Source: Burkholderiaceae bacterium | GTDB lineage: Bacteria; Pseudomonadota; Gammaproteobacteria; Burkholderiales; Burkholderiaceae_E | DNA: 64,000 bases | Direction: 5' to 3' | NCBI GenBank assembly: GCA_044235405.1 | Contig: JBIIHU010000001.1 | Span: 375 to 64,374, forward strand | Shown: in pieces, positions 7,028 through 62,622 of the stretch | Numbering within the stretch: the first letter of the stretch is position 1 | Layout of the letters: each line of letters opens with the position of its first letter | The notes under the pieces: model-generated | Seen by the model: only the letters and a program-made list of their open reading frames with translations | What the model was told of the DNA's origin: nothing | The model's database searches: none | Made by a program: the position numbers and the translations under genes

Positions 7028-7081
7028 TGGCCTACCCTCCGTTCAACGGAGCGTGCGAAGCGAGGCAGGCTCATCGGGCGA

Positions 7082-8125: not shown

Positions 8126-8169
8126 GAAGCGCTCCCTGGCAGCCGGGGCTGCGGTGGCGGGAATCGGAA

Positions 8170-8218
<49 letters not shown>

Positions 8219-8394
8219 TCACCAGCATGGCACCAAGTCGGACACCGAGGGTTCCGTTTCGGGCGGGGTCGGCTGTCCGCGGCGGCGCGGCCGCGCTTTG
8301 CGCCCCGCGACGAATCGGGGAAGATGGGCGCCCGTCCTGCCGGGCTCGCGCCGCGACCGCGCACGGGCCCTCTGTGTCGAAGCGAGGAGATCCG

Positions 8395-8745: not shown

Positions 8746-8764
8746 AACCTCCAGGAGACCCACG

Positions 8765-9400: not shown

Positions 9401-9415
9401 GCTGGAGCGACCACG

Positions 9416-22123: not shown

Positions 22124-22127
22124 GGCG

Positions 22128-23438
22128 ATGGTGCGCGCGTCTGACCCACCGCGCGCCGGCTGGCTCTTCGCTCACGACTGGGACGCTCAGGCGCTGCACG
22201 CGCTCGCGGCGGCCGGCATGGCCCGCTTCGACACCGGCGGCTTCGATCTCTTCCGTTTCCCCGACAACATCCGACTGATCGGCTTCGACATCGAGCGCTT
22301 CGCCCGGCAGCAGGCCCGGCGCGGCCGCCGGCTCGGCTGGCGCGGCGTCCTGTCGCACCACGAGCAGTTCGGCGCGCTCGCCGCGGCGCTGGTCGCCGAG
22401 GCGCTCGGCCTGCCCGGCACCTCGCCCGAGAGCATCCTCGCCGCCCAGCACAAGCTGCACGCCCGGCGCGTGCTGGCGCAGGTGGCGCCCGAGGCGAGCG
22501 TCGAGGCCGATCCGCTGCAGGCGCGCTATGGCGATCCGATCCCGGCAGGCATCGCCTATCCGCGCTTCGTCAAGCCGGTGAAGGCCGCGTTCTCGGTGCT
22601 GGCGCGCCATGTCGACAGCCGCGAGGCGCTGCATCACCACACCCGCTTCGGCCTGCTCGAGCGCTGGCTCATCCATGGGCTGGTCGAGCCCTTCGACCGG
22701 GTGGGCCGCGCGCGGCTGCCGCAGGCCGGAAGCGCGCACCGGATGCTGCTCGAGACCCCGGTGCCCCTGGCGCGCCCGCAGTTCAACCTCGACGGCTGGG
22801 TCTGCGACGGCAACGTGCATGCGCTGGGCGTGGTCGACGCGATCGTGCACCCCGGTACGCAGGCCTTCGTGCGCTGGGAGCTGCCCAGCCGGCTGCCGGC
22901 CCCGGTCCAGGCGCGCATCCTCGAGGTCGCGCGCCGGTTCCTCGCTGCCATCGGCTATCGGCACGGCACCTTCAACCTCGAGTTCTTCCACGACGAGGTC
23001 ACCGGCGAGCTCACGGTGATCGAGTGCAATCCGCGGCTGGCCTCGCAGTTCGGCGACCTCTACCGGCGCGTGCTGGGCGTCGATCCGCATGCGATCGCGG
23101 TGGCCCTCGCCCTCGGCGAGGATCCCGCCTCGATACCGCGCGCCGAGCCAACGGCTGGCGTGGCGGCGAGCCTGGTCTACCGCAGCTTCGAGGGCGCCCA
23201 GCCACCGCCCGCGCCCCGGCGCGCGCAGCGCGAGGCGCTCGCCCGGGCGTTTCCCGACGCGCTGCTCTTCAGCATGCCCAAGCAAGGGCGCGCGCTCGCC
23301 CGCGACTACCGCTGGACGGGCAGCCACCGCTACGGCATCGTGCATCTGGGCGGGCGCGACCGCGACGACCTGCGTGCCCGCGGCGAGCGCGCAAGCGCGC
23401 TGCTGGGCTGGCCCGCGCCCTGGCCCGAGGGCAGCTGA
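22128..23438 (+). CDS. ATP-grasp domain protein
   Basis: FVKPVKAAFS, QFNLDG, FNLEFF and VIECNPRLASQF ATP-grasp motifs; 4 bp after the permease stop. Confidence 0.85.
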   Translation: MVRASDPPRAGWLFAHDWDAQALHALAAAGMARFDTGGFDLFRFPDNIRLIGFDIERFARQQARRGRRLGWRGVLSHHEQFGALAAALVAEALGLPGTSPESILAAQHKLHARRVLAQVAPEASVEADPLQARYGDPIPAGIAYPRFVKPVKAAFSVLARHVDSREALHHHTRFGLLERWLIHGLVEPFDRVGRARLPQAGSAHRMLLETPVPLARPQFNLDGWVCDGNVHALGVVDAIVHPGTQAFVRWELPSRLPAPVQARILEVARRFLAAIGYRHGTFNLEFFHDEVTGELTVIECNPRLASQFGDLYRRVLGVDPHAIAVALALGEDPASIPRAEPTAGVAASLVYRSFEGAQPPPAPRRAQREALARAFPDALLFSMPKQGRALARDYRWTGSHRYGIVHLGGRDRDDLRARGERASALLGWPAPWPEGS

Positions 23439-38991: not shown

Positions 38992-39522
38992 ATGACCGGA
39001 ACCCTCATCACCGTCGTCCAGGGCGACATCGTCCGGCAACCCGACTGCGACGGCGTGGTCAATGCCGCCAACGCCAGCCTGATGGCCGGCAGCGGCGTCT
39101 GCGGCGCGATCCATGCCGCGGCGGGCCCGCGGCTGGAGCCCTATGCCCGCCGATTCGCCCCGCTGCGCGTGGGCGATGCGCTCGCCACGCCCGGCTTCGA
39201 CCTCGCGGGCTGCCGGCTGATCATCCATGCGGTCGGCCCGCGCTACTTCGACGACCCCGACCCGCCGATCCACCTGGCACGCGCGATGCACAGCGCGCTC
39301 GATCTCGCTGATCGCAACCAGCTGCAACGACTGGCCGTGCCGGCGCTGTCCACCGGTGTCTACCGGTACCCGCCCGAGGCCGCGGTCCCGATCCTGGTCG
39401 AGTCGGCCTTCGTCACGGCGCCGACGCTGAATCACCTGCGCGAGATCCGCTTCGTGGTTCCTGGCGAAACGATGCTGGCGCTGTTTCGGGACGCGATCGC
39501 CGGTCAGTCCGCCAGCCGCTGA
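38992..39522 (+). CDS. Macro-domain protein (ADP-ribose binding/hydrolase)
   Basis: QGDIV, VVNAANASLMAGSGVCGAIHAAAG, IIHAVGP and PALSTGVYRYP. Confidence 0.92.
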   Translation: MTGTLITVVQGDIVRQPDCDGVVNAANASLMAGSGVCGAIHAAAGPRLEPYARRFAPLRVGDALATPGFDLAGCRLIIHAVGPRYFDDPDPPIHLARAMHSALDLADRNQLQRLAVPALSTGVYRYPPEAAVPILVESAFVTAPTLNHLREIRFVVPGETMLALFRDAIAGQSASR

Positions 39523-39553
39523 GTTCGGACGCCGGCGCGAACCACCGGCGCCT

Positions 39554-39595
39554 CGAGCATGCGCCCGATCCGCTCGTTCATGATCACGGAGGTGC
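39554..39595 (+). repeat. Left direct repeat (copy of the acyl-CoA dehydrogenase 3' end)
   Basis: CGAGCATGCGCCCGATCCGCTCGTTCATGATC (39554-39585) is identical to 44770-44801 and extends to 42 bp with 2 mismatches. Confidence 0.95.
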
Positions 39596-41578
39596 GGGGA
39601 TCGAGGCTTGCAGCACAGGCAGGGCGCCCGTTGCCAGCCACTGATCGGCCAGCCATCGCGCGGCCTGCGGGGCGGCCACGCTGGTCCCGTTCATCGTTCG
39701 GACCGAAGCCGAGCGCGTACCGGCGGCAAGCACGCCGCGCCGCGCGGGGGATCGGTCGCCGGTCGCCAGCGACTCCGGCGCGGGCCGCGTACGCGAGCCA
39801 TTCAGATGCGGCCCGTCGGACGAGTAGCGTCGCGGTGCGGGATCCACGGCGCCGCGCGCACCGACGATATCCGTGCGGGCGCCCGTGGCAATGCCGCTGA
39901 GCGTCGTCGCTCGCCTCACATAGCCGGTGGCCGGAATCGGATCGACCAGCCGCGGACGCCCGCTGGGATCGAAGCGCGCGTACTCGGGGTCATCGAAGTA
40001 GGACTGGCGCCCCCTCGCGGGCCTGTCGGCGGGGGTGTCGGCACGGGCGATCCAGGCATGGACTTCCTGGACGGGATCCTCGCCGGGATTCAGGACCTCG
40101 ACCGTCCAGCGCCCCGAGGGGGCGGTCGCGTGAGGGACGACTGCCGGATCCTGGCTCGTCGGCGCGATCGTGAGTTCGATCGCATGGCGATTGCCGCTCG
40201 TCCAGTAGCGTGCCTGACCCACCGGACGCCCCGCCGCATTCTGCAGGGCGACGGGATAAGGTGAAGCGCGCGACGTCGTAGTTGTCAGCTGGCCGCTCGG
40301 CGAGGTCAGCTTGACCTGGACGCCGCCCGCCGGCGGATTGTGCAGCCAGATCTGCATCCGGCTGCACACGAGGCTGCCGGGCTGCAGTCGCCAGGCGAGC
40401 TGGCGGGACCCATGGGCGGGCAGATCGAATGCGGCGTGCGCCCGGGCCTGGCGGGCGTTGCCCGCGGCGAGCACGATCCGCATCGGTGTCGCCGTCTTGG
40501 CGGTCGCCCGGACCAGCCAGTCCATGAAGCGTTCGAGCGTCGATCCGCCGTCGTGGGGTCCCTCGTGCGGGCCGTAGCTCAAGGTCACGATGACCGGCAG
40601 CGTTTCGCCGTCTTCACGCATCGCCCTGGCCCTGTCGAGGATGAAGAGCAGCCCGAGCGCGGCCAGCGGGGTCAGCAGCGAAGCGGCGGGATCTCCGATA
40701 CCGGCGTTCGGCATGTCCACCGCGACGATCGGTCGATTCCTGACGTCGCCCCGCGGATCGTCGCCTGCGACGAGATCGAGCACATGAGCGCCGTGCGAGC
40801 GGCTTCGACCCAGGGCCTTGACCCCGGGCCGCGCGTAGTCCAGCCCGCCGATTGCACGGTAGATCTGATCCTCGTCGCCTCCCGTGCTCGTCAGCGCGGC
40901 ATCGATATCGGCCGCGCTCAGGGTTCTGCCCGGGGCACCCGGAAGGGGTCCGTTGCCTGCGCAGCCCTGCTGCCAGAGGTGGGCGATCCGGGTGCCACCG
41001 GCATGACGGAAACGCGCGTGCGCGAACGGAATGCCCTCGTCGATGACGCCGATGACCACGCGCCTTGGCTTGTCGGGAAGGTCAGTCGGCGCGCTCGCCG
41101 TTGGCTGCGAGGCAGCGTGTTTCCGCGGCGGCTCGAACAGTTCCGCATCGAGCAGCGGCCCGAGCTCGACGCTGGCGACGATGCGCTGCCAGGGCTCGCA
41201 GGATATGACGATGCTGAGGTGGCTGTACGCCACGAAGAGCACGCAGATGTCGGGCTCCGGGATCTCGTCGACTTTCGTGCCGGGGTCGCCGAAGCCGCCG
41301 GGAACCCGGATGACATCGTCACCTCGGAGGTTCTCAGGCAGCCAGTCGAGACGGGAGAAGGCCTGCAGCGGACTGAGCTCACCGAGAAATACGAGCTTAG
41401 CCAGCTCCTCGCGTCGAAACTCGACGAGCATCGGAAAAAAGGGCTGGGGCTCTGCCTTGTCCGGCTCGAGTCCGAGGGGCGCGGCGATCAGGCCGGGATC
41501 GCTCGCGATCAGCCAGTCGATCTGCGGCTGGGCGGGCAGGTTTTCCTTCGCCGGAGCGTCATCGAGGGGCTTCGTCAT
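39584..41578 (-). CDS. S8 (subtilisin-like) serine peptidase without a signal peptide
   Basis: VIGVIDEG (Asp), SHGAHVLDLVAG (His), AAGN (oxyanion Asn) and NGTSVAAP (Ser); long insertion between Asn and Ser; GAAAGG RBS. Confidence 0.88.
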   Translation of the reverse strand: MTKPLDDAPAKENLPAQPQIDWLIASDPGLIAAPLGLEPDKAEPQPFFPMLVEFRREELAKLVFLGELSPLQAFSRLDWLPENLRGDDVIRVPGGFGDPGTKVDEIPEPDICVLFVAYSHLSIVISCEPWQRIVASVELGPLLDAELFEPPRKHAASQPTASAPTDLPDKPRRVVIGVIDEGIPFAHARFRHAGGTRIAHLWQQGCAGNGPLPGAPGRTLSAADIDAALTSTGGDEDQIYRAIGGLDYARPGVKALGRSRSHGAHVLDLVAGDDPRGDVRNRPIVAVDMPNAGIGDPAASLLTPLAALGLLFILDRARAMREDGETLPVIVTLSYGPHEGPHDGGSTLERFMDWLVRATAKTATPMRIVLAAGNARQARAHAAFDLPAHGSRQLAWRLQPGSLVCSRMQIWLHNPPAGGVQVKLTSPSGQLTTTTSRASPYPVALQNAAGRPVGQARYWTSGNRHAIELTIAPTSQDPAVVPHATAPSGRWTVEVLNPGEDPVQEVHAWIARADTPADRPARGRQSYFDDPEYARFDPSGRPRLVDPIPATGYVRRATTLSGIATGARTDIVGARGAVDPAPRRYSSDGPHLNGSRTRPAPESLATGDRSPARRGVLAAGTRSASVRTMNGTSVAAPQAARWLADQWLATGALPVLQASIPAPP

Positions 41579-41593
41579 GGCGGCCTGCCTTTC

Positions 41594-42790
41594 TCACCAC
41601 TCCGCGGCAGCCGCCTGCCACAGCCAGTGAAGCCTCGAGGTCCCCTGAACGGCGCAGGTCGCAAAGCCACCCGGCACAGCGCCCGCTATTCTGTGGGCGT
41701 AACCCGTGGTCTGCCGGCTGCCCGCTTGCGGATCGAAGAGTTCCTGGCCGGAGAAGTCGCCCTGGGGCGGATACTGCGCGACATCCAGAGCCCAGGCGTC
41801 GACCAGGGTAGCACCGCCACCGGACGGCCTGCAGCGCGCGATGAAATACTCGCCGAGGCTCAGGCCGAGCAGCTGACCGGCGGCGCTGTCGATCGGGTAA
41901 TGGACGCCGGCCACCGTCCGGTTGATGGCGATGCGCGCCGCCTGACGCATGAGCAGCTCGCGCAGTTGCGTTTTCGCGCCCGCGCTGGCGGCCGGCAGGG
42001 CCCCGGTGGCGAGTTCGACCAGCACCCGAGCCACCGTGTACGCCTCGGTCGCGTGTCCGCTGGGCAGGGCGGCATGGATCGGGGTCGGGATCATCGGCTG
42101 AACCTGCGCCGAGAGCTCGTGCGGCCTGGGTACGCCGAGCGCATCCTTGAAGTTCATCTCGGCGTACTTGGCCAGGCGCAGCACCATCCCGATCAGCTCG
42201 AAGGTCTTCGGATGGCGCGCGGGCTGCAGCGGAAGCACCGAGGCCCAGAACGCATATTGGGGCGCCTTCTGCGCGAGGATCTCGCGCGCCCGGTCGCCGC
42301 GCAGGTCGGCATAGCCGTTCAGGTAGTCGAGTTGCGCCTCGAGGATCGTCGTCAAGCCCGCAGGGTCGGGCAGGCTGATGCGCACCAATGGCGTCCCGCT
42401 CCAGGCCGGCGTACCGCCCACCGGGGTGACCTCGAGATGCCAGAGGGTTGCGGTCCGCGAGGTCGCGTCGGTGCTGAAGTGGAGCCCCGACAGCAGCTCG
42501 GATTCGAAGAGCAGCCGACGGATCCGGGGATCCAGACGTCCGAGGCCGGCGACACCAAAGTTGGGCGGCGTGGGGTGAACCGCGGGGTCGAGCGCGCGGA
42601 CAGGCCAGACAGGACCCATCGGAGCCCAGGCGCCGACGATGGCATCGCGGTGCGGAATCAGGGCACCGGAGGAGGAGCCCCCCCGCCTCGATGCTCCGTA
42701 ACCCTCGTAGCCCTCGTAACCTTCGTACCCCTCATAACCCTCGTAGCCCTCGTAACCCTCGTAGCCCTCATAGCCTTCGAGTCGACTCAT
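41594..42790 (-). CDS. PAP2 / vanadium-haloperoxidase superfamily enzyme with N-terminal (EGY)9 repeat
   Basis: KDALGVPRP (K-x6-RP), PSGH and RTVAGVHYPID (R-x5-H-x3-D) are all present; strong AAGGAG RBS before MSRLEGY. Confidence 0.88.
   Translation of the reverse strand: MSRLEGYEGYEGYEGYEGYEGYEGYEGYEGYGASRRGGSSSGALIPHRDAIVGAWAPMGPVWPVRALDPAVHPTPPNFGVAGLGRLDPRIRRLLFESELLSGLHFSTDATSRTATLWHLEVTPVGGTPAWSGTPLVRISLPDPAGLTTILEAQLDYLNGYADLRGDRAREILAQKAPQYAFWASVLPLQPARHPKTFELIGMVLRLAKYAEMNFKDALGVPRPHELSAQVQPMIPTPIHAALPSGHATEAYTVARVLVELATGALPAASAGAKTQLRELLMRQAARIAINRTVAGVHYPIDSAAGQLLGLSLGEYFIARCRPSGGGATLVDAWALDVAQYPPQGDFSGQELFDPQAGSRQTTGYAHRIAGAVPGGFATCAVQGTSRLHWLWQAAAAEW
42698..42778 (-). repeat. 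Coding 9-bp tandem repeat x9 encoding (Glu-Gly-Tyr)9
   Basis: Units use GAG/GAA, GGT/GGC/GGG and TAC/TAT; every difference between units is synonymous. Confidence 0.97.
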
Positions 42791-42829
42791 GCTAACTCCT
42801 TCAATCCGGGGATCGGTGTACGCCGATGA

Positions 42830-44608
42830 TCAGTCAGGAACCCCCGCCAACGCCAGGGCCTGCGCCGCCAGCCTGCCATTCTCGTAGCCGCTGCTCGGCG
42901 AGCGGCGAACGAAATCCTCCACGCGAAAGGAGGGGGCCTGACGCATCAGTTCCCTGGTCACGGCGCGGGCCTCGTCGGCGGCGCCGAGATGCCACAACGC
43001 GATGATCAGCGTCCTGAGCGTGGATCCATGCGTCCGATTCAGACGCAGCGAGCTGCGCGCGAGCCGGACGCCGCGCTCATACTGTCCGGCGGAAACCGCG
43101 GCGGTTGCCGCGAGTGCCTCGAAGTAGAAGCGCAGCGGATCCATCGGCGAAAGCCGCATGGCCTGTTTCGTGTGCCGAACGGCCTCCCTGCCCTCGTCGC
43201 GAAAGGCGTGCAGGGTTCCCTTGAGGAGCCATGCCAGCGCGTCGTTCGGGTTCGCCTGCAGCGCCTGCGCATAGCGATCCTCGGCTTCGTCGAGCTGCTT
43301 CAGGATGTAGGTGTGAACCTGGCCTTCCACGGTCAGGGCGAGCGACGAGGCGGCATCGCGATCGAGCGCGCGACGCGCGCATTCCAGTGCTGCACGCCCA
43401 TCGGCCTGCGAATCATCCGACCAGCCCTGGGTCACACGCAGCACATGCCATTTCGCGAGCCAGGCGTGCGGCGCGGCCAGCCGCGGCGCGCGCTCGATCA
43501 GGGTTTCCAGCATCTGGTGCGCACGCCGGAAGGCCTGCGGCGAAATCCGATGCATCAGCGTGATACCCGCCAGCAGCAGCGTGTGGTTCTCGAGCGTCTG
43601 GGCAGCCTGCCCCTGGGCCCGCTGCAGTTCATGCACCATCATGCCGGCACAGGCTTCGTCGACGAGCTGCGCGGGCAAAGGATCTTCGCCGGCCAGGATC
43701 GCCGACACCTTGCCCTTCAGGCTCCCCGCCCAGGCAACCCGCCCGTCCCTGGTCTCGGCGAGCTCGGCCTTCAGCGAGAGCCGGTCGCCCTGCACGTGGA
43801 AGGACCCCGACAGGACATAGTTGGCCCTGAGACGGGTCCCGATGTCTTCCAGGGCGATCGTACGATCCTGCAGCGCCGCGGTCGACAGACGCGACACCAC
43901 GTTGATCTCGAGTGAACGCGACAGCGTCGAAATCACTTCGTCGGCGACGATCTGGCCGAGGATCCGGTGCGGGGATTCCACGTCACGGACAGAGAACGGA
44001 AGCACGGCGACCGTCGCTCGCAGATCGCTCGCAAGGTCCGTGATCGGGATGATCGGCGTGTCGACCGGCGGGCCGACCCGGAATGCTCGCACCGGCTTTC
44101 GGATGTGCTTCAGGTGACATTCGCCGAGATCCTCGAGGTCGGCGTCGATGTCGGGTGTCAGTTGATCGCGAACGTCCGCGGACACGACGGTTTCGCCCGC
44201 GCCGGCCAGCGAGAGCAGCCGCGCCGCGAGATTCAGGCCGTGTCCGTACACATCGTGGCGCCCGGTGATCAGGGGGCTGACATGGATGCCGATGCGCAGC
44301 CAGAGCCGGTACTCGTGGGCGATGCCTGGATGGGTCTGGCCGATTGCCCCGTGCATCGCGAGCGCCGCGCGCACGGCCGCCCGCGCGTCGGGGAACTCGA
44401 TCATCAGGCCATCGCCAAGACTCTTGACCAGACGTCCACCGTTCCCGGGCAGAAACCGATCGACCACGAGATCGACAAAGGTCTGCCAGCGCTTCACCGT
44501 GCCCGCTTCGTCGAGCTGCATCAGCCGCGTGTACTCGACCACATCGGCCATCAGCACCGTGCGGACCACCCGCGTGAGTTTCTCGGCGGCCGACAGGGTT
44601 TGCGACAT
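42830..44608 (-). CDS. Class III adenylate/guanylate cyclase-TolB-like-TPR protein
   Basis: LMADVVEYT and VKSLGDG (metal Asp, base-specifying Lys), HDVYGHGLNLAARL (Asp, N-x3-R), TVAVLPF TolB-like domain and several TPRs. Confidence 0.9.
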   Translation of the reverse strand: MSQTLSAAEKLTRVVRTVLMADVVEYTRLMQLDEAGTVKRWQTFVDLVVDRFLPGNGGRLVKSLGDGLMIEFPDARAAVRAALAMHGAIGQTHPGIAHEYRLWLRIGIHVSPLITGRHDVYGHGLNLAARLLSLAGAGETVVSADVRDQLTPDIDADLEDLGECHLKHIRKPVRAFRVGPPVDTPIIPITDLASDLRATVAVLPFSVRDVESPHRILGQIVADEVISTLSRSLEINVVSRLSTAALQDRTIALEDIGTRLRANYVLSGSFHVQGDRLSLKAELAETRDGRVAWAGSLKGKVSAILAGEDPLPAQLVDEACAGMMVHELQRAQGQAAQTLENHTLLLAGITLMHRISPQAFRRAHQMLETLIERAPRLAAPHAWLAKWHVLRVTQGWSDDSQADGRAALECARRALDRDAASSLALTVEGQVHTYILKQLDEAEDRYAQALQANPNDALAWLLKGTLHAFRDEGREAVRHTKQAMRLSPMDPLRFYFEALAATAAVSAGQYERGVRLARSSLRLNRTHGSTLRTLIIALWHLGAADEARAVTRELMRQAPSFRVEDFVRRSPSSGYENGRLAAQALALAGVPD

Positions 44609-44755
44609 GGTCGGTCTCAGGCAACGAAAATGGGATGTGGAGGGATAAGCCGACGCTGCCGATTCTACCCAGCGGGTGGGGCTGGATCGTCCATCCCCCG
44701 GTAATCCCCGGAGTGGCCACGACTTCCACGCGGATCGGCGGCGTCCCGTCGTCGC

Positions 44756-45916
44756 TCAGGGCCCCTGCACGAGCATGCGCCCGATCCGCTCGTTCATGAT
44801 CTCGGTGGTGCCGTCGGTAAAACCCATCACCTTGGCGGCGGCCAGGTGGCGGCCGAGCCCGTGCTCGTCGAGCAGGCCCTCGGCGCCCATCGCCTGAATG
44901 CAGGCGGCGATCGCGGCGAGCGTGTGTTCGCCAGCAAATTTCTTGGCGATGGCCGCCGCCATCTGGGCGTCGAGCCCGCGGTCGATCAGCCCGGCCGCGC
45001 GGTAGGTGAGCAGGCGCAGCGCCTCGAGCGTGGTGGCGACCCCCGCGAGCGACCAGCGCAGCCCCTGGTGGCCCAGCAGCGGCAGGCCGAAGGCCTCGCG
45101 CGAGGCACCGCGGGCCACCGCCTTGCCGAGCGCGGTCTCGATCATGCCGCAGCACATCGCCGGGATGTGGGCACGCGCCTTGTTGATCGACCCCATGGCC
45201 GCCCTGAAGGCCTGACCAGGCGCATAGAGCATCAGCTCGTCGGGCACGAAGCAGCCCTCCAGCCGGTAGCCGCCGGTGCCGGCGGCATGAATGCCGGCTA
45301 CCGCGAGCGCGGGTTCGCGGATGAATCCGGCCTGGTCGCCGGCGACGATGAAGCAGGCGATCCCGCGATCGCGCGAGCCCGGTTCGGTCTGGGCGAAGGT
45401 GAGGAAGACATCGGCCTTTGATGCGTTGACGATCCAGCGCTTGGCGCCGTCGAGCACCCATCCGCCGGCCACCCGACGCGCGACCGTGGTCGAGGCGGCG
45501 AAGTCGCTGCCACCGCCCGGCTCGGTCATGCCGGTGCAGCCGATCAGCTCGCCCGCCATCAGCGCGGGCACGAAGCGTGCGACGGCCGCCGGCGAGCCGT
45601 GGTCGGCGATGCGCGAGGCCGCGTTGTGCTGGTTCACCAGCGAGAAGGCGAAGCCGAAGTCATGGCGGGCGATCTCCTCGACCATCCGCAGCTTGGCGCC
45701 GAAGGGCAGGCCGAGACCGCCGCGCGCCGCCGGTACCTCGATCGCCGCGAATCCCTGGGCGCAGGCAGCTCGAATCGCCTCGCGCGGGAATCGACCCTCG
45801 CGCTCCCAGTCGGGCGCGGCGGGCGCGACCACCTGCGAGGCGAAGGCGATGGTACGGGCGACGAGCTCGCGCGCGGCGGCGGGCAGGGCGGCGTCGAATT
45901 CGGCGGTGGCGTGCAT
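44756..45916 (-). CDS. Acyl-CoA dehydrogenase family protein
   Basis: GMTEPGGGSD, LDGAKRWIVN, HQGLRWSLA, AKKFA, MGAEG and FTDGTTEIM. Confidence 0.93.
   Translation of the reverse strand: MHATAEFDAALPAAARELVARTIAFASQVVAPAAPDWEREGRFPREAIRAACAQGFAAIEVPAARGGLGLPFGAKLRMVEEIARHDFGFAFSLVNQHNAASRIADHGSPAAVARFVPALMAGELIGCTGMTEPGGGSDFAASTTVARRVAGGWVLDGAKRWIVNASKADVFLTFAQTEPGSRDRGIACFIVAGDQAGFIREPALAVAGIHAAGTGGYRLEGCFVPDELMLYAPGQAFRAAMGSINKARAHIPAMCCGMIETALGKAVARGASREAFGLPLLGHQGLRWSLAGVATTLEALRLLTYRAAGLIDRGLDAQMAAAIAKKFAGEHTLAAIAACIQAMGAEGLLDEHGLGRHLAAAKVMGFTDGTTEIMNERIGRMLVQGP
44770..44811 (+). repeat. Right direct repeat, inside the acyl-CoA dehydrogenase 3' end
   Basis: Matches 39554-39595; encodes ...TEIMNERIGRML of the intact gene. 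Confidence 0.95.
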
Positions 45917-45970
45917 GCTGTGCGACGAGGTCGGAGGATCTGCGGACGGTGCAGGCGCGGACGGGCTGCG

Positions 45971-46759
45971 TCAGCGCGGCCGCACGAACAGGGTGTGCAG
46001 GCTGCGGCCTGCCGGGCCGTCGGCATCGAAGACCGTCGTGTGCACCAGCCCGATCCCGACGCCATCGACCACGGTACGCGCATCCATCCCGAACCAGGGA
46101 CCCCGCGGCAGGCGGTGCAGGTTCAGGCTGAGATCGACCGGCGGGAAGGTGTGCGTGCGGACATCGAGCTCGGCGCTCACGCCGTTGGCCGAGTCGAGAA
46201 AGGTCAGCAGGCCCTCGAGTCCCCCGGTTTGCTCGCCGGCCACCAGCGGAATCCTCGCCCTGCCCCAGACCAGCGCCGGGCCGGGCGCCACGAAGCTGCC
46301 CCGCACGAAACGCCATTCGAGCGCGTGGCCGTAGGGGAAATGCGTGACGCCCGGGAAGAACTCGGTGGTTTCAAGATCGGGCAGCGGCGGGGGCACGAAG
46401 GGGTCGGGTATCGCGGGCGAACTGCCGACGGCCCGCTGAAGACGCCAGGCATGCGCCAGCAGCACCGGCTTGCCGCCGACCGACAGTTCGCCCTGCAGCA
46501 GCTCAATGCGGCGCCCGGGCCGCAGCACGCGCACCGCAACGCTGCAGGGGGCGACCGGCACCGGACCGAGAAACTCGACGGTCAGGCGCGCGATCGTCAG
46601 GTCCTCATCGCCCGGGTGCAGGCGCATCGCGCGCGCGAGCAGGGCGATCGGCGGCCCGCCGTGCTGCAGCTCGCGCGACCAGGGGCCCACCGTGGCTTCG
46701 GTGGGCTGCCAGGTGTGAACGCCTACGGGCAGGAAGAAGGCGTCGGAGAGCCCGGCCAT
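45971..46759 (-). CDS. Thioesterase-family (double hot-dog) protein
   Basis: GPWSRELQHGGPPIALL, ARLTVEFLGPVP, DSANG and DLSLNLHR. Confidence 0.88.
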   Translation of the reverse strand: MAGLSDAFFLPVGVHTWQPTEATVGPWSRELQHGGPPIALLARAMRLHPGDEDLTIARLTVEFLGPVPVAPCSVAVRVLRPGRRIELLQGELSVGGKPVLLAHAWRLQRAVGSSPAIPDPFVPPPLPDLETTEFFPGVTHFPYGHALEWRFVRGSFVAPGPALVWGRARIPLVAGEQTGGLEGLLTFLDSANGVSAELDVRTHTFPPVDLSLNLHRLPRGPWFGMDARTVVDGVGIGLVHTTVFDADGPAGRSLHTLFVRPR

Positions 46760-46777
46760 GCGCAGACGCAGGCGCCG

Positions 46778-47149: not shown

Positions 47150-47170
47150 ACTTCCGGCCTGGCCGGAAGT
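47150..47170. repeat. Perfect inverted repeat ACTTCCGGCC-T-GGCCGGAAGT
   Basis: 10-bp arms with a 1-nt spacer, between the divergent cupin and Rpn genes. Confidence 0.8.
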
Positions 47171-47233
47171 CGGATTGGCACACGAGGCGCCCGGACCGAA
47201 GATGGTCACGAACCCGCCCGCCGATCCTGCTCG

Positions 47234-48157
47234 ATGCCCGCACCCACCTCCCGGCCGCTGCTGCTGGACCCGAAAAACGATTTCGTCTTCAAGAAGCTGC
47301 TGGCCGACGCGCCGACGCTTCTGGCCGCGCTGATCAACGCCGTGCGCCATCCGCGTCCCGCGGTCACCGTGGTGGACATCCTCAACCCGGTCATCACCCC
47401 CGAGGAACTCGAGGGCAAGTTCATCGTCCTCGATGTCCTTGCCGAAGACCAGCTCGGCCAGCGCCACGACGTCGAGATGCAGTCGAGACCCTTCCCGGCG
47501 TGGGGCGCGCGCAGCGTGTATTACCTCGCCCGCACCCTGGCGCGCCAGCTCGATGCGGGCCACGAATACACGCGGCTGCGCCCGGCGATCGGCATACACC
47601 TGCTCGATTTCGCGCTGTACGATGACGAGGATTCGACGCAACAGGCCGCCTGGTGCTTCGAGCTGCGCGATGGCAGACGCCCGACGGTGCGCCTCGGACC
47701 GGAGCTCGAGCTCCACCTGATCGAACTGCCCAAGGCACGCCGACTTCGTCGACTCGGGTACGAGCCGGCGCTGGCGGGCGCGCTGGGCGCCTGGATCGAT
47801 TTCTTCGAGCACTGGAACGACGAGGAACGCATGGCCGGAATCGACGAACCCGCGGTACGGCAGGCGCTGGTGCGACTGCATGATCTCAGCGCCGACGAGG
47901 AGGCGCGGCGGATGGCCTTCGTGCGGATGCGCGCGCTGCGCGACGAGCGCGCGATCCGGCTCGGGGAACGCGAAGCCGGTCGTGCCGAGGGCGAAATCAT
48001 CCTGCTGCTGCGCCTTCTCGAGCAACGCTTCGGACCCATACCCGCCACCGCGATCGCTCGCCTGCGCCGGGCGACACCCGAGGAATGCGCTGGCGTGGCC
48101 GATCGGATGCTGCGGGCGGCAAGCCTCGTCGAGGCGCTCGGTCCCGTCGCCACCTGA
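47234..48157 (+). CDS. Rpn-family recombination-promoting nuclease / PD-(D/E)XK putative transposase
   Basis: DPKNDFVFKKL, LDVLA...DVEMQ, RSVYYLAR, LELHLIELPK, W..F and C-terminal EGRAEG/LLEQRFG module. Confidence 0.9.
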   Translation: MPAPTSRPLLLDPKNDFVFKKLLADAPTLLAALINAVRHPRPAVTVVDILNPVITPEELEGKFIVLDVLAEDQLGQRHDVEMQSRPFPAWGARSVYYLARTLARQLDAGHEYTRLRPAIGIHLLDFALYDDEDSTQQAAWCFELRDGRRPTVRLGPELELHLIELPKARRLRRLGYEPALAGALGAWIDFFEHWNDEERMAGIDEPAVRQALVRLHDLSADEEARRMAFVRMRALRDERAIRLGEREAGRAEGEIILLLRLLEQRFGPIPATAIARLRRATPEECAGVADRMLRAASLVEALGPVAT

Positions 48158-54516: not shown

Positions 54517-55809
54517 TCAGACCGCCTCGTCGACGTGCTCGAGCGCGGCGCGGAACTTCGCGAGCGCGCGCTCGCGCTGCCCGGGCACGTGGTACTCGGG
54601 GAAGAGCGCGTCGGTGGCCTTGTAGTCGCGCAGCATCTGCTTGGCGAGCGTGGCCTTGTGCACCTCCACCGGGCCGTCGGCCAGCGCCACGTGGTAGGAC
54701 TGCATCACCAGGTGGGCGAAGGGCATCTCCTCGGAGATGCCGATCGAGCCGTGCAGCAGCAGCGCCCGCGAGGCGATATCGTGCAGCACCTTGGGCATCG
54801 CCGCCTTCACCGCCGAGATGTCCTTGCGCACCTTCTTGTAGTCCTTGTGACGATCGATCAGCCAGGCGGTGCGCAGCACCAGCAGGCGGAACTGCTCGAG
54901 CTCGATCCAGGAGTCGGCGAGCCGCTCCTGCACCATCTGCTTGTCGGCGAGGCGCTCGCCCTGCGTGCGCCGCGAAAGCGCCCGCTCGCACATCATGTCG
55001 AGCGCGCGCCGCGCCTCGCCGATCGTGCGCATCGCGTGATGGATGCGCCCGCCGCCGAGCCGGGTCTGGGCGACCACGAAGGCGTCGCCGCGCCCGCCGA
55101 GCATGTGGTCGGCCGGCACCCGGACCCCGTCGAACTGGAGGTAGCCGTGGGTGGGCGTGACCTCGGTCGGGAAGCCGGCGTTGCGGATGATCTTCAGGCC
55201 GGGCGTGGACGTGGGCACGATGAACATCGACATCGTGCGGTAGGGGGAGGCGTCCGGATCGGTCACCGCCATCACGATCAGGAACTCGGCGAAGTTGGCG
55301 TGCGAGGCGAACCACTTCTGGCCGCTGATCACCCACTCGTCGCCGTCGCGCACGGCGCGCGTGGTGAAGACCTTGGGGTCGGCGCCGCCCTGCGGCTCGG
55401 TCATCGCGAAACACGACACGATCTCGTTGTCGAGCAGCGGCTGCAGGAAGCGACGCTTCTGCTCGGGCGTGCCGTAGTGGGCGAGGATCTCGGCGTTGCC
55501 GCTGTCGGGCGCCTGGCAGCCGAACACCGTGGGGCCGAAGCGCGAGCGCCCGAGGATCTCGTTGAGCAGCGCGAGCTTGACCTGGCCATAGCCCTGGCCG
55601 CCGAGCTCGGGGCCGAGGTGGCAGGCCCACAGGCCGCGCTCGCGCACCTGGGCCTGCAGGGGCCGCACGAGCCGGTTGCGGCGCGCATCGCGCACGTCGC
55701 AGGGGTGACCGAGCACATGATCGAGCGGCTCGATCTCCTCGCGCACGAAGCGATCCACCCAGTCGAGCTGCGCCTGATAGGCGTCGTCGGTGCCAAAGTC
55801 CCAGGCCAT
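54517..55809 (-). CDS. Acyl-CoA dehydrogenase (ACAD10/11-like)
   Basis: APDSGNAEIL, FAMTEPQGGADP, AQTRLGGGRIHHAMR and LADGPVEVH. Confidence 0.93.
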   Translation of the reverse strand: MAWDFGTDDAYQAQLDWVDRFVREEIEPLDHVLGHPCDVRDARRNRLVRPLQAQVRERGLWACHLGPELGGQGYGQVKLALLNEILGRSRFGPTVFGCQAPDSGNAEILAHYGTPEQKRRFLQPLLDNEIVSCFAMTEPQGGADPKVFTTRAVRDGDEWVISGQKWFASHANFAEFLIVMAVTDPDASPYRTMSMFIVPTSTPGLKIIRNAGFPTEVTPTHGYLQFDGVRVPADHMLGGRGDAFVVAQTRLGGGRIHHAMRTIGEARRALDMMCERALSRRTQGERLADKQMVQERLADSWIELEQFRLLVLRTAWLIDRHKDYKKVRKDISAVKAAMPKVLHDIASRALLLHGSIGISEEMPFAHLVMQSYHVALADGPVEVHKATLAKQMLRDYKATDALFPEYHVPGQRERALAKFRAALEHVDEAV

Positions 55810-55957
55810 GTCGTCGTCCTCCTTTCGAAAGACGCCATGGTCGGGCGGGCGCGCCGCACGCGCTCGGCGAGAGCGCGCTAAACGGACCGCCGGAATCGCA
55901 GCCCTGAAAACGACTCGCGCGCCCGAAGGCGCGCGAGTTCACCGCGGAGGGGAAGGC

Positions 55958-57993: not shown

Positions 57994-59328
57994 ATGCCCG
58001 AGCCCGCCCCGCCGATCGCCGGCCTGGCGCCCGCCACCTCGCCCGACGCGGCGCTCGACGCCCTGCTCGCACGCCGCGACCGGCTCTTCGGCCCGGGTGC
58101 GCCGCTCTTCTACCAGCGGCCGCTGCACCTGGTGCGCGGCGAAGGGGTCTGGCTGCACGACGCCGACGGCCGACGCTACCTCGACCTCTACAACAACATC
58201 CCGGTGGTGGGGCATGCCAACCCGCGCGTCGTGGCGGCCCTGGCCGGGCAGGCGGCGCGCCACTGGACGCACAGCCGCTACCTCGATGCCCGCATTCTCG
58301 ACTACGCGCAGCGCCTGGTCGACCTGCACGACCCCTCGATCGGCAGCGTGGTGTTCACCTGCACGGGCACCGAGGCCAACGAAGTGGCGATGCAGATGGC
58401 GCGCATCGCCACCGGCGGCCGCGGCTTCGTGTGCACCACCGCGGCCTACCACGGACACAGCGCACTGGTCGGCTCACTCACCCGCGCGCCGCGACGGGGC
58501 CGGCCCGATGTCCATGCGATCGCGTACCCGCAACGCTATCGCCCGCTGGCCGACGGGCTCGATGCGGCCGGGCTGGTGCGGGCCCATCTCGACGAGGTTC
58601 GCGCCGCGATCGCCGACTTCGATGCCGCCGGCGTGCCCCTGGCCGGCATGCTGGTGTGCCCGATCTTCGCCAACGAAGGCCTGCCCGAGCCGCTGCCCGG
58701 CTTCCTGCCGCAGGCCGCACGGCTGGTGCGCGAGGCCGGGGGCCTGCTGATCGTCGACGAGGTGCAGTCGGGCTTCTGCCGCACCGGACGGTGGTGGGCG
58801 TACCAGGGCGAGGGCGTGGTGCCCGACATCGTCACCACCGGCAAGCCGATGGGCAACGGCATGCCGATGGGCGCGTGCGCGGCCCGCCCGGACCTGGTCG
58901 CGCGCTTTCGCGCCGCGGGCCGCTACTTCAACACCTTCGCCGGCTCGCCCGTGCATGCGGCTGCGGGTCTGGCGGTGCTCGACGAGATCGAGGACCGCGG
59001 GCTGGCGGCGAAGGCCGCGGCCCACGGTGCATGGCTGCTGGAGGCGCTGCGCGAGATCGCGATCAACGTGCAGGCGATCGGCGACGTGCGCGGGCGCGGC
59101 CTGTTCATCGCGATCGAGTGGGTGCATGACCGGACCACACGCGCCCCCGACCGCGAAGGGGCCGTCGCGATGGTCAACCGCCTGCGCGACGCCGGCGCGC
59201 TGATCGGCCATGCCGGCGAACACGGCAACGTGCTCAAGATCCGCCCGCCGCTGGTTTTCGAGCGGGAGCACGCCGAGTACTTCGTCGCCCTCTTCAAGCA
59301 GGCGCTCGAGCGCACGGCGACCGCCTGA
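57994..59328 (+). CDS. Class III PLP aminotransferase family (possibly phospho-lyase subgroup)
   Basis: VRGEGVWL, YLDLYNN..VVGHANP, TGTEANE, DEVQSGFCRTG, TGKPMGNG and NVLKIRPPL. Confidence 0.9.
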   Translation: MPEPAPPIAGLAPATSPDAALDALLARRDRLFGPGAPLFYQRPLHLVRGEGVWLHDADGRRYLDLYNNIPVVGHANPRVVAALAGQAARHWTHSRYLDARILDYAQRLVDLHDPSIGSVVFTCTGTEANEVAMQMARIATGGRGFVCTTAAYHGHSALVGSLTRAPRRGRPDVHAIAYPQRYRPLADGLDAAGLVRAHLDEVRAAIADFDAAGVPLAGMLVCPIFANEGLPEPLPGFLPQAARLVREAGGLLIVDEVQSGFCRTGRWWAYQGEGVVPDIVTTGKPMGNGMPMGACAARPDLVARFRAAGRYFNTFAGSPVHAAAGLAVLDEIEDRGLAAKAAAHGAWLLEALREIAINVQAIGDVRGRGLFIAIEWVHDRTTRAPDREGAVAMVNRLRDAGALIGHAGEHGNVLKIRPPLVFEREHAEYFVALFKQALERTATA

Positions 59329-59333
59329 ACATC

Positions 59334-60422
59334 ATGAGCGCGACCGAAGACCGCGGCAGCGACGGCGATCCCGCGCAGGATCGGGCGGCGCACGCATGCG
59401 CCGGCGCGGCGCTCGCGCACTGGGGCATCGCCGACGCGACCCTCGACTTCGTCGCGGCGCGCGAAAACGTGGTCTTCCGGGCCACGCTCGGCGACGGCCG
59501 ACGGTACGCCGTGCGGATCCATCGCGCCGGGTATCACGACGCCGCCGAACTGACGAGCGAGCACGCCTGGACCACCGCACTCAGCGATGCCGGCATCCCG
59601 ACCCCGCGCCCCGTGCCCACGCTGACGGGCGCGCCGCACGCCGAGCTCGCATGGCCCGGCGCCGGCGGCGGGGTTCGCTTCGTGGGACTGATCGAGTGGA
59701 TCGACGGCGTGCCGATGGCCGAGGCGATCGCCAGCGGCACGGCCGATCCCGTCGACGTGCTCGAGCGCATCGGCGCGACCCTCGCCCGCATGCACGCGCA
59801 GGCCGTCGCATGGGCCGCACCGGCCGGCTTTCGCCGCCCCCTGCTCGATGCCGATGGCCTGATCGGCGAGCGGCCCTGGTGGGGCTCGTTCTGGGATCTG
59901 CCGGAGTTCGACGCGACCCAGGCCCGCGTCGTGCGCGAGGCGCGCGCGCGCATGCATGCCGGCCTGCTCGCCCATGGCCGGCAGGCCGCGACCTTCTCGA
60001 TCATCCATGCCGACGTGCTGCCGCAGAACGTGCTGCTGCGCGACGGCGAGCCGGTCATCTTCGACTTCGACGACTGCGCCTTCGGCTGGCATGCCTACGA
60101 TCTCGCGGTCGCGCTGATCCCCTTCATGCACGACCCGCGCTTCGAGGCGCTCGCGGCGGCTGCCGTGCGCGGCTATCGGCGCGAGCGGCCCTTCCCCGCT
60201 GCCGAGGTCGAGCAGCTTTCCCGGCTGCTGGCGGCGCGGCTTCTGGTGCAGCTCGGCTGGCTGCACCACCGGGTGCCCCGGGCGCTGCGCCTCGGGCCCG
60301 AGCGGGTCGTGCCCCGCGCCGAACTGCTGGGCCCGCGGATCACCGCCGCGCTGTCGGCCTGCGAACAGGTGCTCGATGGCGTCGAACCCTTTCCTCTCGC
60401 GGAGATCCCCCGATGCACCTGA
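59334..60422 (+). CDS. APH/choline-kinase-like phosphotransferase
   Basis: ENVVFR, YAVRIHR, IIHADVLPQNVL and IFDFDD..FGW..YDLA. Confidence 0.9.
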   Translation: MSATEDRGSDGDPAQDRAAHACAGAALAHWGIADATLDFVAARENVVFRATLGDGRRYAVRIHRAGYHDAAELTSEHAWTTALSDAGIPTPRPVPTLTGAPHAELAWPGAGGGVRFVGLIEWIDGVPMAEAIASGTADPVDVLERIGATLARMHAQAVAWAAPAGFRRPLLDADGLIGERPWWGSFWDLPEFDATQARVVREARARMHAGLLAHGRQAATFSIIHADVLPQNVLLRDGEPVIFDFDDCAFGWHAYDLAVALIPFMHDPRFEALAAAAVRGYRRERPFPAAEVEQLSRLLAARLLVQLGWLHHRVPRALRLGPERVVPRAELLGPRITAALSACEQVLDGVEPFPLAEIPRCT

Positions 60423-61969
60423 CCGACCTCTACTTCCGCGGCCTGCTCACGCACCCGGACCGGCTCGCGCTGAGCGGCGATGGCGGCGACATGACCTACC
60501 GGCAGGTCTGGCGGCAGGTCTGCCGCGTCGCCCGCCGACTGCACGAGGCGGGCTTCGGTCCGGGAGACCGCTTCGCGGTGCTCAGCCCCAACACCGGGCA
60601 GGCCTTCATCGCGATGCTGGGCGCGATGCGCGCAGGCGTCGCCTGGAGCAACCTCAACATGCGCGCCGCGCCGGCCGACATCCTGCACATCCTGGCGGCA
60701 GGGCGCTGCGGCCTGCTCTTCTTCGACCCGGCCGCGGGCGGCCTGGTCGAGGCGATCCGGGCTGGCGTGCCGACGCTGCGCGAGGTGGTCTGCCTGGGCG
60801 ACGATCCGCGCGCGCCCTCGCTCGAGACCTGGCTGGGCGATGTGTCCGATGCGCCACTCGACCTGCGGCTGCCGGAGGACGCGCAGGGCTTCCAGGGGGC
60901 GACCGGCGGCACGACCGGCCGATCCAAGCTCACGGTCGGCTCGAACCGATCCATTCTCACGAGCGTGCTCGCGTGGGCGACCTGCCTGCACTTCGACGAG
61001 CCCCCGGTGAATCTGGCCGTCGCGCCGATCACCCACGCCGGCGGTTTCGTCGCGATGGGCATGGGCCAGTTCGGCGGTACGACGATCATGATGTCCACGC
61101 CCGATGTCGGCGCGATGATCGACCTGATCGCGCAGCGCCGCGTGTCGGTGCTCTTCCTGCCCCCGACGCTGATCTACATGCTGCTCGCGCATCCGAAGGC
61201 GGCCGATGCCGACTTCTCCTCGCTGCGCTACCTGATCGCCGCCGCCTCGCCGTTCGCGCCCGAGAAGATCGTCGAGGCGGTGCATCGCGTCGGGCCGGTG
61301 GTCTGCCAGGCCTTCGGTCAGACCGAATCGGGCTTTCCGACCACCTTCATGTCGCCGGCCGAGATCGCGCAGGCGGTGCGCGAGCCCTCGCTGCGCCACC
61401 GGCTTCTGTCGTGCGGCCGACCCACGGTCGTCGTCGAGGCGATGGCGGTGATGGACGAGCAGGGCCGCCTGCTGCCGCCCGGCGAGACCGGCGAGGTGGT
61501 GCTGCGCGGGCCCACGATCATGGACCGCTATCTGGACGACGAGGCGGCGACCGCCGAGATCCAGCAGCACGGCTGGCACCACACCGGCGACATCGGCCGG
61601 CGCGACGAGGACGGCTACTTCTACATCACCGACCGCAAGCGCGACCTGATCATCTCGGGCGGCTTCAACATCTTCCCCTTCGAGGTCGAGAGCGCGCTGA
61701 TGCAGCACCCGGCGGTGCAGGACTGCGCGGTGATCGGCGTGCCCGACCCCAAGTGGGGCGAGGCGGTGAAGGCCTGCGTGCAGCTCAAGCCGGGCGCGCA
61801 GGCGAGCGCCGACGAGATGATCGCCTGGGCGCGAGGCATCGTCGGCGCGATGAAGGCGCCCAAGTCGGTGGACTTCATCGATGCGCTGCCGCGCAGCCCG
61901 GTGGGCAAGGTCCTGAAGCGCGAGCTGCGCGCGCCCTGGTGGGCCGGTCGCGAACGCGGGGTGGGTTGA
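60413..61969 (+). CDS. AMP-binding acyl-CoA ligase
   Basis: TGGTTGRSK, FGQTE, HTGDIG, DRKRDLIISGGFN and PVGKVLK. Confidence 0.92.
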   Translation: MHLTDLYFRGLLTHPDRLALSGDGGDMTYRQVWRQVCRVARRLHEAGFGPGDRFAVLSPNTGQAFIAMLGAMRAGVAWSNLNMRAAPADILHILAAGRCGLLFFDPAAGGLVEAIRAGVPTLREVVCLGDDPRAPSLETWLGDVSDAPLDLRLPEDAQGFQGATGGTTGRSKLTVGSNRSILTSVLAWATCLHFDEPPVNLAVAPITHAGGFVAMGMGQFGGTTIMMSTPDVGAMIDLIAQRRVSVLFLPPTLIYMLLAHPKAADADFSSLRYLIAAASPFAPEKIVEAVHRVGPVVCQAFGQTESGFPTTFMSPAEIAQAVREPSLRHRLLSCGRPTVVVEAMAVMDEQGRLLPPGETGEVVLRGPTIMDRYLDDEAATAEIQQHGWHHTGDIGRRDEDGYFYITDRKRDLIISGGFNIFPFEVESALMQHPAVQDCAVIGVPDPKWGEAVKACVQLKPGAQASADEMIAWARGIVGAMKAPKSVDFIDALPRSPVGKVLKRELRAPWWAGRERGVG

Positions 61970-62031: not shown

Positions 62032-62622
62032 TCAGCGCCCGGGCCTGCGCCGCGGCTCGAGCAGATCGAGCAGCATCTCCGGTCCGCCGAGCCGGATCAG
62101 GTGCTTGGCCGCATAGGCACGCGCCTGCTCGGTGATCTCGCCGGTGGCGATGAAAAGGGCGTCGTGGACGTCGAGCCGCTCGCGCGAGCTCTGCAACGCC
62201 TCGAGCACCTCGATGCCGCTGCGCGCCGCCTTCCATCGCCGTGCGCCCACGACGGTGCGCCGGCCGTTGCGCTCGATGATGAAATCGGCGCTGGAGTGCC
62301 GGATCGCCTCGACCGTGGCCCCCTCGCGCTGCCAGGCCTCGGTCAGCGTCCGGGAGAACGCATCCCAGCTCATCGCCCGCACCGACTCGGTGATCGCGGC
62401 CACGCGCTTCGGGCTGGGCGCATCGAGCTGACGCCAGCCGCGGATGACCCCGATCACGGCGAAGGGCAGCGCGAACATCGCCGCGAAGAAGGGCGGCAGG
62501 AACAGGCCGGTGAAGGCGAACAGGCCCGCGGCGATCAGCATGCTCACCCACCAGGGCGAGCGCAGCAGGATCGCGAACAGCGACCCCTCGGACATTCGCA
62601 GCTGCGGCAGCTTCCAGGCCAT
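62032..62622 (-). CDS. Membrane-anchored Mrr-like restriction-endonuclease-fold protein
   Basis: Two N-terminal TM segments, then MSWDAF...ADF...RRWKA...IATG Mrr_cat-like domain. Confidence 0.8.
   Translation of the reverse strand: MAWKLPQLRMSEGSLFAILLRSPWWVSMLIAAGLFAFTGLFLPPFFAAMFALPFAVIGVIRGWRQLDAPSPKRVAAITESVRAMSWDAFSRTLTEAWQREGATVEAIRHSSADFIIERNGRRTVVGARRWKAARSGIEVLEALQSSRERLDVHDALFIATGEITEQARAYAAKHLIRLGGPEMLLDLLEPRRRPGR

Follow-up and report, generated by a model that had tools for sequence, protein, structure and literature searches.

Duplicated 3′ end of an acyl-CoA dehydrogenase gene around a three-gene operon in a Burkholderiaceae genome: a possible scar of recombination between alleles

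Here we describe a locus in a 64,000-nucleotide stretch of DNA from a Burkholderiaceae bacterium (GenBank assembly GCA_044235405.1, contig JBIIHU010000001.1, positions 375 to 64,374; hereafter the window, in whose numbering all positions are given unless a relative is named). A cassette of three genes, which code for a class III cyclase with tetratricopeptide repeats (cyclase-TPR), a PAP2-like protein and an S8 serine peptidase, lies between the gene of an acyl-CoA dehydrogenase (ACAD) and a macro-domain gene on the opposite strand, and is bounded by two direct copies of the ACAD 3′ end (Table 1). The original prediction, made from the sequence of the window, took the cassette for a horizontally acquired, site-specifically integrated element. 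We give a probability of about one half to a different reading, in which the repeat is the one-off scar of recombination between two alleles of the locus, one filled and one empty, and not an attachment (att) site.

Table 1. Features of the ACAD/macro-domain locus (positions of the window).
Feature	Position	Strand	Description
Macro-domain gene (O-acetyl-ADP-ribose deacetylase-like)	38992-39522	+	convergent with ACAD in empty-site relatives
Displaced ACAD tail (EAPVVRAGVRTQRLAD, then stop) and convergent spacer	39504-39553	-	overlaps the macro-domain stop codon
Left repeat copy	39554-39595	-	orphaned ACAD 3′ stub; exact 32-bp part 39554-39585
Cassette gene 3	39584-41578	-	S8 (subtilisin-like) serine peptidase, 664 aa; PF00082
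Cassette gene 2	41594-42790	-	PAP2-superfamily protein, 398 aa; PF01569 7e-10
Cassette gene 1	42830-44608	-	class III adenylate/guanylate cyclase domain and C-terminal TPR, 592 aa; PF00211 4e-9, TPR_19 5e-9
ACAD-cyclase spacer	44609-44755	-	collinear with the spacer of relative L054; TAGAAT -10-like hexamer (44662-44667) common to both
ACAD gene	44756-45916	-	386 aa, intact, three-domain
Right repeat copy	44770-44811	-	3′ terminus of the intact ACAD gene, functional; codons ...GTTEIMNERIGRML; exact 32-bp part 44770-44801
Rpn-family PD-(D/E)XK recombination-promoting nuclease gene	47159-48157	+	PF12784 1e-32; TIGR01784 80 bits, above the cutoff of 52

By direct reading of the sequence, 39554-39585 is identical to 44770-44801 over 32 bp, and the match extends to 39595 and 44811 with two mismatches (42 bp, 95% identity), both of which fall in 39586-39595 of the left copy. 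The copies are 5216 bp apart (repeat finder, family D3). The 32-mer occurs exactly twice in the window, even when up to three mismatches are allowed, and no match of this kind arose in 100 dinucleotide-preserving shuffles; the two flanks align locally with a score of 37, compared with a mean of 10.8 in shuffles (sd 1.1, maximum 14.5). Sequence reading, repeat finder and shuffles together bear out the repeat of the original prediction. The right copy encodes the terminus of the intact ACAD (...TTEIMNERIGRMLVQGP, then stop), and its sequence is kept in all ACAD orthologues, with 0-5 differences per 32 nt. Read in the same frame, the left copy continues as ...IMNERIGRMLEAPVVRAGVRTQRLAD to a stop codon at 39504-39506, which overlaps the 3′ end of the macro-domain gene; the gene caller of one assembly (L047) annotated this displaced tail as a 25-aa fragment. 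A 6-bp GC hairpin in the displaced-tail spacer (39530-39550) was not significant against shuffles (z = -1.0 to -1.6), and hairpins of the convergent spacers were generally no better than shuffles (z from -1.6 to +0.4). A second ACAD paralogue, encoded 9 kb away by an open reading frame (ORF) of 473 aa (54520-55938, minus strand), does not contain the repeated 32-mer.

The original prediction asked for long reads to confirm the assembly; independent assemblies show that the arrangement is no artefact. A 69-kb k141 contig from ENA (L048) runs from ACAD through the cassette into the macro-domain gene and contains both repeat copies. The right copy is also crossed from ACAD into the cassette by four short contigs of other JGI/ENA assemblies (L049-L053, with L059 and L049 being one record), and the adjacency of the S8 and macro-domain genes is carried by a 37-kb JGI contig, as seen in its list of neighbouring genes. 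In a Logan k=31 graph, depth is 12.5 and 10.3 for the flanks, 11.4 for the cassette and 22 for the 32-bp repeat node; the node depth indicates two genomic copies, and nothing more.

ACAD proteins of more than 80% identity were found only in freshwater Burkholderiaceae or Burkholderiales metagenome-assembled genomes (MAGs). Three of the relatives, L001 and L061 (ACAD 86% identical at the amino acid level) and L060 (89%), have the predicted empty site, in which nothing separates ACAD from the convergent macro-domain gene but a spacer, and the same kinase gene comes next. In a blastn comparison with L060, the high-scoring segment pair (HSP) that covers ACAD ends at position 44764 (L060 9153), and a second one begins at 39595 (L060 9106) and is collinear through tail, spacer and macro-domain gene. 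The 48 nt between these points of L060 (9106-9153) are present twice in the window, and L001 gives the same pattern. Because of its collinearity with the empty-site arrangement, the left copy is the original ACAD end, orphaned but still in place relative to the macro-domain gene, and the displaced alternative C-terminus that the original prediction had read from this stretch is supported. The comparison also supports the view that, relative to close relatives, the cassette segment has been inserted.

The filled form of the locus was found in a further relative, L054, with the order ACAD, cyclase-TPR, PAP2-like, S8, macro-domain and kinase genes; it also encodes the closest homologue of the S8 peptidase (P0002, 60% identity). 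Between the window and L054, amino acid identities are 83% for the cyclase-TPR, 64% for the PAP2-like and 60% for the S8 protein, and 75-89% for the flanking proteins. The flanks of L054 have a DNA identity of approximately 92% to those of the empty L060; since two such similar genomes differ by the cassette, its presence or absence segregates among close relatives. On the ACAD side, the HSP of L054 against L060 also ends at L060 9153, and the window and L054 are collinear through ACAD, tail, spacer and cyclase gene. The last four codons of ACAD in the window (VQGP, then stop) represent the same cassette-linked tail type as those of L054 (VPGR, then stop), and the two tails are homologous. On the macro-domain side, L054 resumes at L060 9183, with 29 nt replaced and no duplication. 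A search for flanking repeats in L054 gave nothing above shuffled controls, and its spacer between the S8 and macro-domain genes, which is similar in length to that of the window (61 vs 48 nt for the pair of window and L054), showed no significant similarity to the ACAD end, the stretch being too short for a base-by-base homology to be significant.

The left copy also forms the end of the S8 gene, whose TGA stop codon (39584-39586) falls within it and takes one of the two mismatched bases. The peptidase is thereby lengthened by the residues APP, which are read from the repeat, and ends in ...IPAPP, compared with ...IP in its closest homologues (P0002 and P0007). Apart from this stop codon, the 32-nt stretch of the left copy is non-coding; even so, it matches the coding copy at every base, including the two differences from L060, and the adjacent spacer is full of substitutions and indels. 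An identical copy beside a diverged spacer implies that the left copy either was a functional part of ACAD until recently or has recently been converted, and the event that displaced it is probably recent. The left copy is present in every sampled conspecific contig that extends over the left junction, despite nearby differences (L048), so the event is older than the sampled species diversity.

The arrangement can be accounted for as follows. The convergent ACAD/macro-domain locus exists in this freshwater clade of Burkholderiaceae in two forms, an empty one, in which the two genes abut, and a filled one, in which ACAD is followed by the three-gene operon and has a short tail (V-Q/P-G-P/R-stop) and a spacer, with a promoter-like hexamer, that belong to this form. 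In the lineage of the window, a filled allele would have recombined with an empty one. The exchange on the ACAD side would have been homologous, which explains why the window and L054 share their ACAD-cyclase junction. At the opposite end, the terminus of the protease gene may have been joined illegitimately to the resident ACAD 3′ end, and a joint of this kind would make the macro-domain-side junction unique, as it is. This joint may have been blunt after the last Pro codon, with two later A-to-T changes, or may have formed within a 12-of-14 microhomology, GCACC(T/A)CCG(T/A)GATC. Either linear homology-facilitated illegitimate recombination (HFIR) or a Campbell-type single crossover of a circularised fragment would give the product, and either allele could have been the recipient; we infer both this polarity and the enzymology from the structure of the locus. 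The predicted outcome is an intact ACAD with the cassette-linked tail, a protease that runs three extra codons (APP, then stop) into foreign sequence, and a 42-bp orphan of the old ACAD end that is left with its old tail against the macro-domain gene. The difference between ...IPAPP and the ...IP of the homologues fits an accidental joint at the stop codon. One feature expected of HFIR is seen, a junction with homology to a related allele and collinear with it (ACAD, tail, spacer and cyclase gene, compared with L054). The other junction, on the macro-domain side, differs from that of L054 and may be either the 12-of-14 microhomology or a blunt joint at the S8 Pro codon with two mutations.

Several points weigh against this explanation. 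No conspecific empty-site allele and no donor were found, which leaves the recombining partners hypothetical; an ACAD of the empty type (398 aa) was sought in the 90% cluster, of which all full-length members have 386 aa. Sliding-window identity to eight relatives revealed no mosaic breakpoint in ACAD, a test of low power at identities of 84-86%. The identical 32-bp copies presuppose that donor and recipient matched over this stretch, an assumption that is made plausible by the mere 1-3 nt by which relatives differ here. The structure alone is indistinguishable from an attL/attR pair, and a hybrid att site would just as well be expected to have its two mismatches together at one edge. Finally, HFIR needs a naturally transformable host, and the organism belongs to an uncultured lineage represented by MAGs.

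Site-specific integration, the mechanism of the original prediction, we regard as unlikely. It would make the cassette a minimal integrative element, or a decayed one akin to the cis-mobilizable elements (CIMEs), whose attP resembles the 3′ end of ACAD and which was inserted by a recombinase of the tyrosine or serine type, encoded elsewhere or since lost; the copies would be attL and attR, between which the element could excise as a 5.2-kb circle. In favour of this rival, the gene whose 3′ end the direct repeats duplicate is restored, the mismatches lie at one edge only, as they do in hybrid att sites, and relatives have empty sites. Site specificity would also entail the identical ACAD-side junction of the window and L054, and CIMEs, which are flanked by att sites and have no integrase, are documented (PMC5704250). 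The predicted compositional difference was observed as well: the cassette is slightly lower than the flanking genes in GC (0.67-0.70 vs approximately 0.71-0.72) and in GC at third codon positions (0.82 vs 0.87-0.90), and the homologous cassettes of L054 and of a more distant relative, L057, have the same GC offset.

Against these points stands the failure to find a recombinase or a recurrent att core beside the bounding repeats. Pfam scans of approximately 50 ORFs across the window detected no integrase, resolvase or transposase, whether in the cassette or elsewhere, and the Pfam lists of neighbouring genes contained no recombinase within 10 kb. No room is left for a decayed integrase, as the S8 stop codon is separated from the repeat by 0 nt, and the other side of the cassette consists of a 147-nt spacer that is conserved with L054. 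A scan of the window for tRNA and transfer-messenger RNA genes was negative, and the repeat finder detected no inverted repeat pairing the cassette ends. The core sequence of the repeat had no match in IMG/VR, and the S8 protein had none in phage genomes. The original prediction had named a relative with the operon at this locus but without repeats as evidence against itself, and L054 is such a relative, with the same cassette, the same ACAD-side junction and no left copy. Flanking repeats above shuffles were likewise absent from the more distant three-gene modules of L056 and L057, which lie in unrelated contexts, and the plasmid copies of Phaeobacter and Bosea described below have neither flanking repeats nor an adjacent integrase. 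A 21-nt pair in L057 (2233/8385) was judged to be a chance match. Of the proposed horizontal acquisition, the insertion stands, its origin appears limited to exchange within the clade, and integration by a site-specific recombinase was not borne out.

Signs of excision were looked for and not seen. The predicted empty junction (...ACCGAGATCATGAACGAGCGGATCGGGCGCATGCTCGAGGCGCC...) had no exact match in JGI metagenome contigs, and cassette depth equals flank depth in three Logan graphs, although contigs built with k=31 end at the repeat and do not allow a circle to be resolved. Of the raw reads of one run (X21), none mapped to the locus. Rare deletion of the cassette between the repeats, which would regenerate ACAD with its old tail, is possible in principle. 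A transposon or insertion sequence was rejected: there is no transposase domain and there are no terminal inverted repeats, and the duplication is a 42-bp gene end, not a target site duplication of 2-12 bp.

Somewhat less probable still is an ancient insertion in the common ancestor of the window and L054, with gene conversion from the functional copy keeping the orphan copy identical in the window, loss or degradation of that copy in L054, and loss of the cassette in L001 and L060. The shared ACAD-side junction and the similar lengths of the spacers between the S8 and macro-domain genes agree with it, and a divergence of the cassette proteins that is similar to or above that of the flanks is compatible with vertical descent. 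Such a history would, however, require repeated conversion over a distance of 5.2 kb on a tract of 32-42 bp, at the lower limit of efficient homologous pairing, together with two independent clean losses that spared both convergent genes; moreover, what similarity there is between the L054 spacer and the ACAD end is not significant.

We give little credence to the proposal that the operon is a minimal cassette without integrase that is moved precisely and repeatedly into the ACAD 3′ ends of related Burkholderiaceae, by a recombinase acting in trans or by the Rpn-family nuclease, with the 32-bp core as recognition site and an uncharacterised conflict or signalling module, present on chromosomes and plasmids, as cargo.

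A purely local rearrangement is improbable. In that case the cassette would be the resident state, and a template switch or small ectopic duplication would have copied 42 bp of the ACAD end into the spacer between the S8 and macro-domain genes. The confinement of the event to the lineage of the window and the possible microhomology at the S8 end would fit, but the sequence beyond the left copy is of the empty-allele type (L060, L001) and not the S8-macro spacer of L054; as more than 42 bp are of this type, a local copy is insufficient. Chance similarity or an assembly artefact, in whose favour nothing speaks except a break of the Logan k=31 graph at this 32-bp repeat, is excluded as the origin of the repeat by the shuffle controls (0 of 100; alignment score 37 vs a maximum of 14.5) and by independent assemblies, with L048 spanning both junctions, four more contigs spanning the right one, and a repeat node depth of 22 next to neighbours of approximately 11.

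The three genes between the copies are intact, tightly packed (spacers of 39 and 15 nt) and all on the minus strand. The peptidase has its D/H/S motifs (VIDEGI, SHGAHV and GTSVAAP), and all three PAP2 motifs (KX6RP, PSGH and RX5HX3D) can be read from the translation of the second gene. Metatranscriptome contigs cover all three genes and ACAD, which suggests that they are expressed, with DNA carry-over into such libraries being possible. None of the three proteins reaches the cutoff of any NCBIfam model. A defence system of the Pycsar or CBASS type was considered and rejected: PADLOC returned only weak, sub-threshold matches to PycC (5.9e-6, 24 bits) and IetS (1.8e-3), and a Pfam scan found no cyclic nucleotide-binding domain, as expected of a nucleotide-sensing effector, in any cassette protein. 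A literature search for the cyclase/PAP2/S8 module returned no papers.

The PAP2-like protein begins with MSRL(EGY)x9, encoded by a 9-bp tandem repeat (42690-42788). This gene always opens with MS(R/M)L and 9-10 copies of a tripeptide, likewise encoded by a 9-bp tandem repeat, which is EGY in the window and L054 (8807-8914), EGA in L056 (8812-8919) and DSY in L057 (5191-5298); the tripeptide repeat could be a substrate of, or a leader for, the adjacent S8 protease. Strain-level single-nucleotide polymorphisms of the region are mostly in the S8 and PAP2 genes, and the length of the PAP2-like product varies within the species, with 402 aa in L048 (12839-14047) instead of 398 aa and, in one sample from a lake (run X10), 12 nt inserted downstream of position 42580 in window numbering.

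A pair of PAP2 and S8 genes was also found on alphaproteobacterial plasmids or chromids, in Phaeobacter inhibens (L072, 3154-8815) and Bosea (L073, 3636-8602). It is preceded there by a different first gene, which encodes a winged-helix regulator in Phaeobacter and a 547-aa hypothetical protein in Bosea; Bosea has an IS1182 gene at a distance of 4 kb, not as a flank of the module. What is conserved is a core of the type (sensor/regulator)-PAP2-S8, whose output domain can be swapped.

To the left, the locus is followed by the convergent macro-domain gene and a hybrid histidine kinase gene; to the right lie genes for an acyl-CoA thioesterase, a cupin, the Rpn-family nuclease, a class V aminotransferase and rmuC. 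The macro-domain ORF may begin at 38932 (196 aa), and the public gene calls start at the ATG at 38992 (176 aa), the sole recorded form. The -10-like hexamer upstream of the cyclase gene was called by eye; a scan for promoter and terminator consensus sequences did not flag it and returned nothing relevant. The Rpn gene lies outside the cassette, 2.4 kb from the right copy, and is the sole nearby gene of recombination type besides rmuC; it occurs in empty and filled relatives, and partial tblastn matches indicate that it may be truncated or degraded in L003, L004 and L060.

Gene content is variable throughout the neighbourhood beside the Rpn gene, including the interval upstream of ACAD (45917-46777). 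L001 has approximately 2.9 kb of extra ORFs between the thioesterase gene and ACAD (7100-10000), L054 has a Monooxy_af470-like gene in place of the thioesterase gene (4992-5507), and L060 has only fragments of the latter (6776-7222). Elsewhere in the window, a small protein with an Mrr_cat restriction-endonuclease domain is encoded near the end (62035-62655, minus strand), and Pfam gave no match for three ORFs (22116-23435, 58926-60446 and 60499-61173).

Beta- and Alphaproteobacteria share the three-gene module, which also occurs on plasmids; with no assignment to a curated family, it invites functional work. If the repeat is indeed a recombination scar, an accessory operon can enter or be reshuffled at a chromosomal locus without a dedicated mobility gene and leave behind an att-like duplication of a gene end; pipelines for the detection of islands that read direct repeats at 3′ ends as site-specific integration should be used with corresponding caution, for which the alleles of related lake bacteria (filled, empty, and filled without a repeat) offer a small test set.

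Genomic islands and CIMEs are known to target the 3′ ends of protein-coding genes, for example in the ICESt1/ICESt3 family. The locus resembles their attL/attR pairs in having a target gene whose 3′ end recurs as a direct repeat, an end supplied by the inserted segment that keeps the gene intact, relatives with empty sites and, as in CIMEs, no integrase between the repeats. It differs from them in that no cognate att site, no cognate element with an integrase and no decayed mobility DNA were found, in that the orthologous cassette of L054 has no second site, and in that the left boundary lies on the stop codon of a cargo gene and changes its C-terminus. Rpn (YhgA-like) proteins raise RecA-independent recombination in horizontal transfer in Escherichia coli and are now also seen as toxin or defence nucleases (PMC5350276; PMC10400941). 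A member of this family is encoded nearby, next to a stretch of variable gene content, but it is present in empty and filled relatives alike, and nothing ties it mechanistically to the joint.

A Campbell-type single crossover would likewise give a direct duplication of the shared segment around the insert, with mismatches on one side of the crossover; on the other hand, the shared 32-42 bp come close to the lower limit for RecA-dependent pairing, a circular form was not seen, and the circle would need an illegitimate end-joining of its own. HFIR has reportedly been described in natural transformation by de Vries and Wackernagel in 2002, Prudhomme in 2002 and Meier and Wackernagel in 2003, work summarised in PMC6382021. 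The locus differs from those systems in that HFIR is proposed here from comparative sequence, with hypothetical donor and recipient, and in that the 12-of-14 microhomology is longer than the experimental 3-10 bp, or else a blunt joint was followed by two point mutations. A passage in PMC6382021, which cites de Vries & Wackernagel 2002, presents HFIR with illegitimate joints of 3-10 bp as an established route for foreign DNA with one-sided homology. The likeness to HFIR lies in one homologous, collinear junction and one novel junction, possibly at a short GC-rich (micro)homology, in the placement of intact foreign genes beside an anchor gene, and in a process for which no recombinase gene is needed; the locus is a new instance of a kind of event that is already known.

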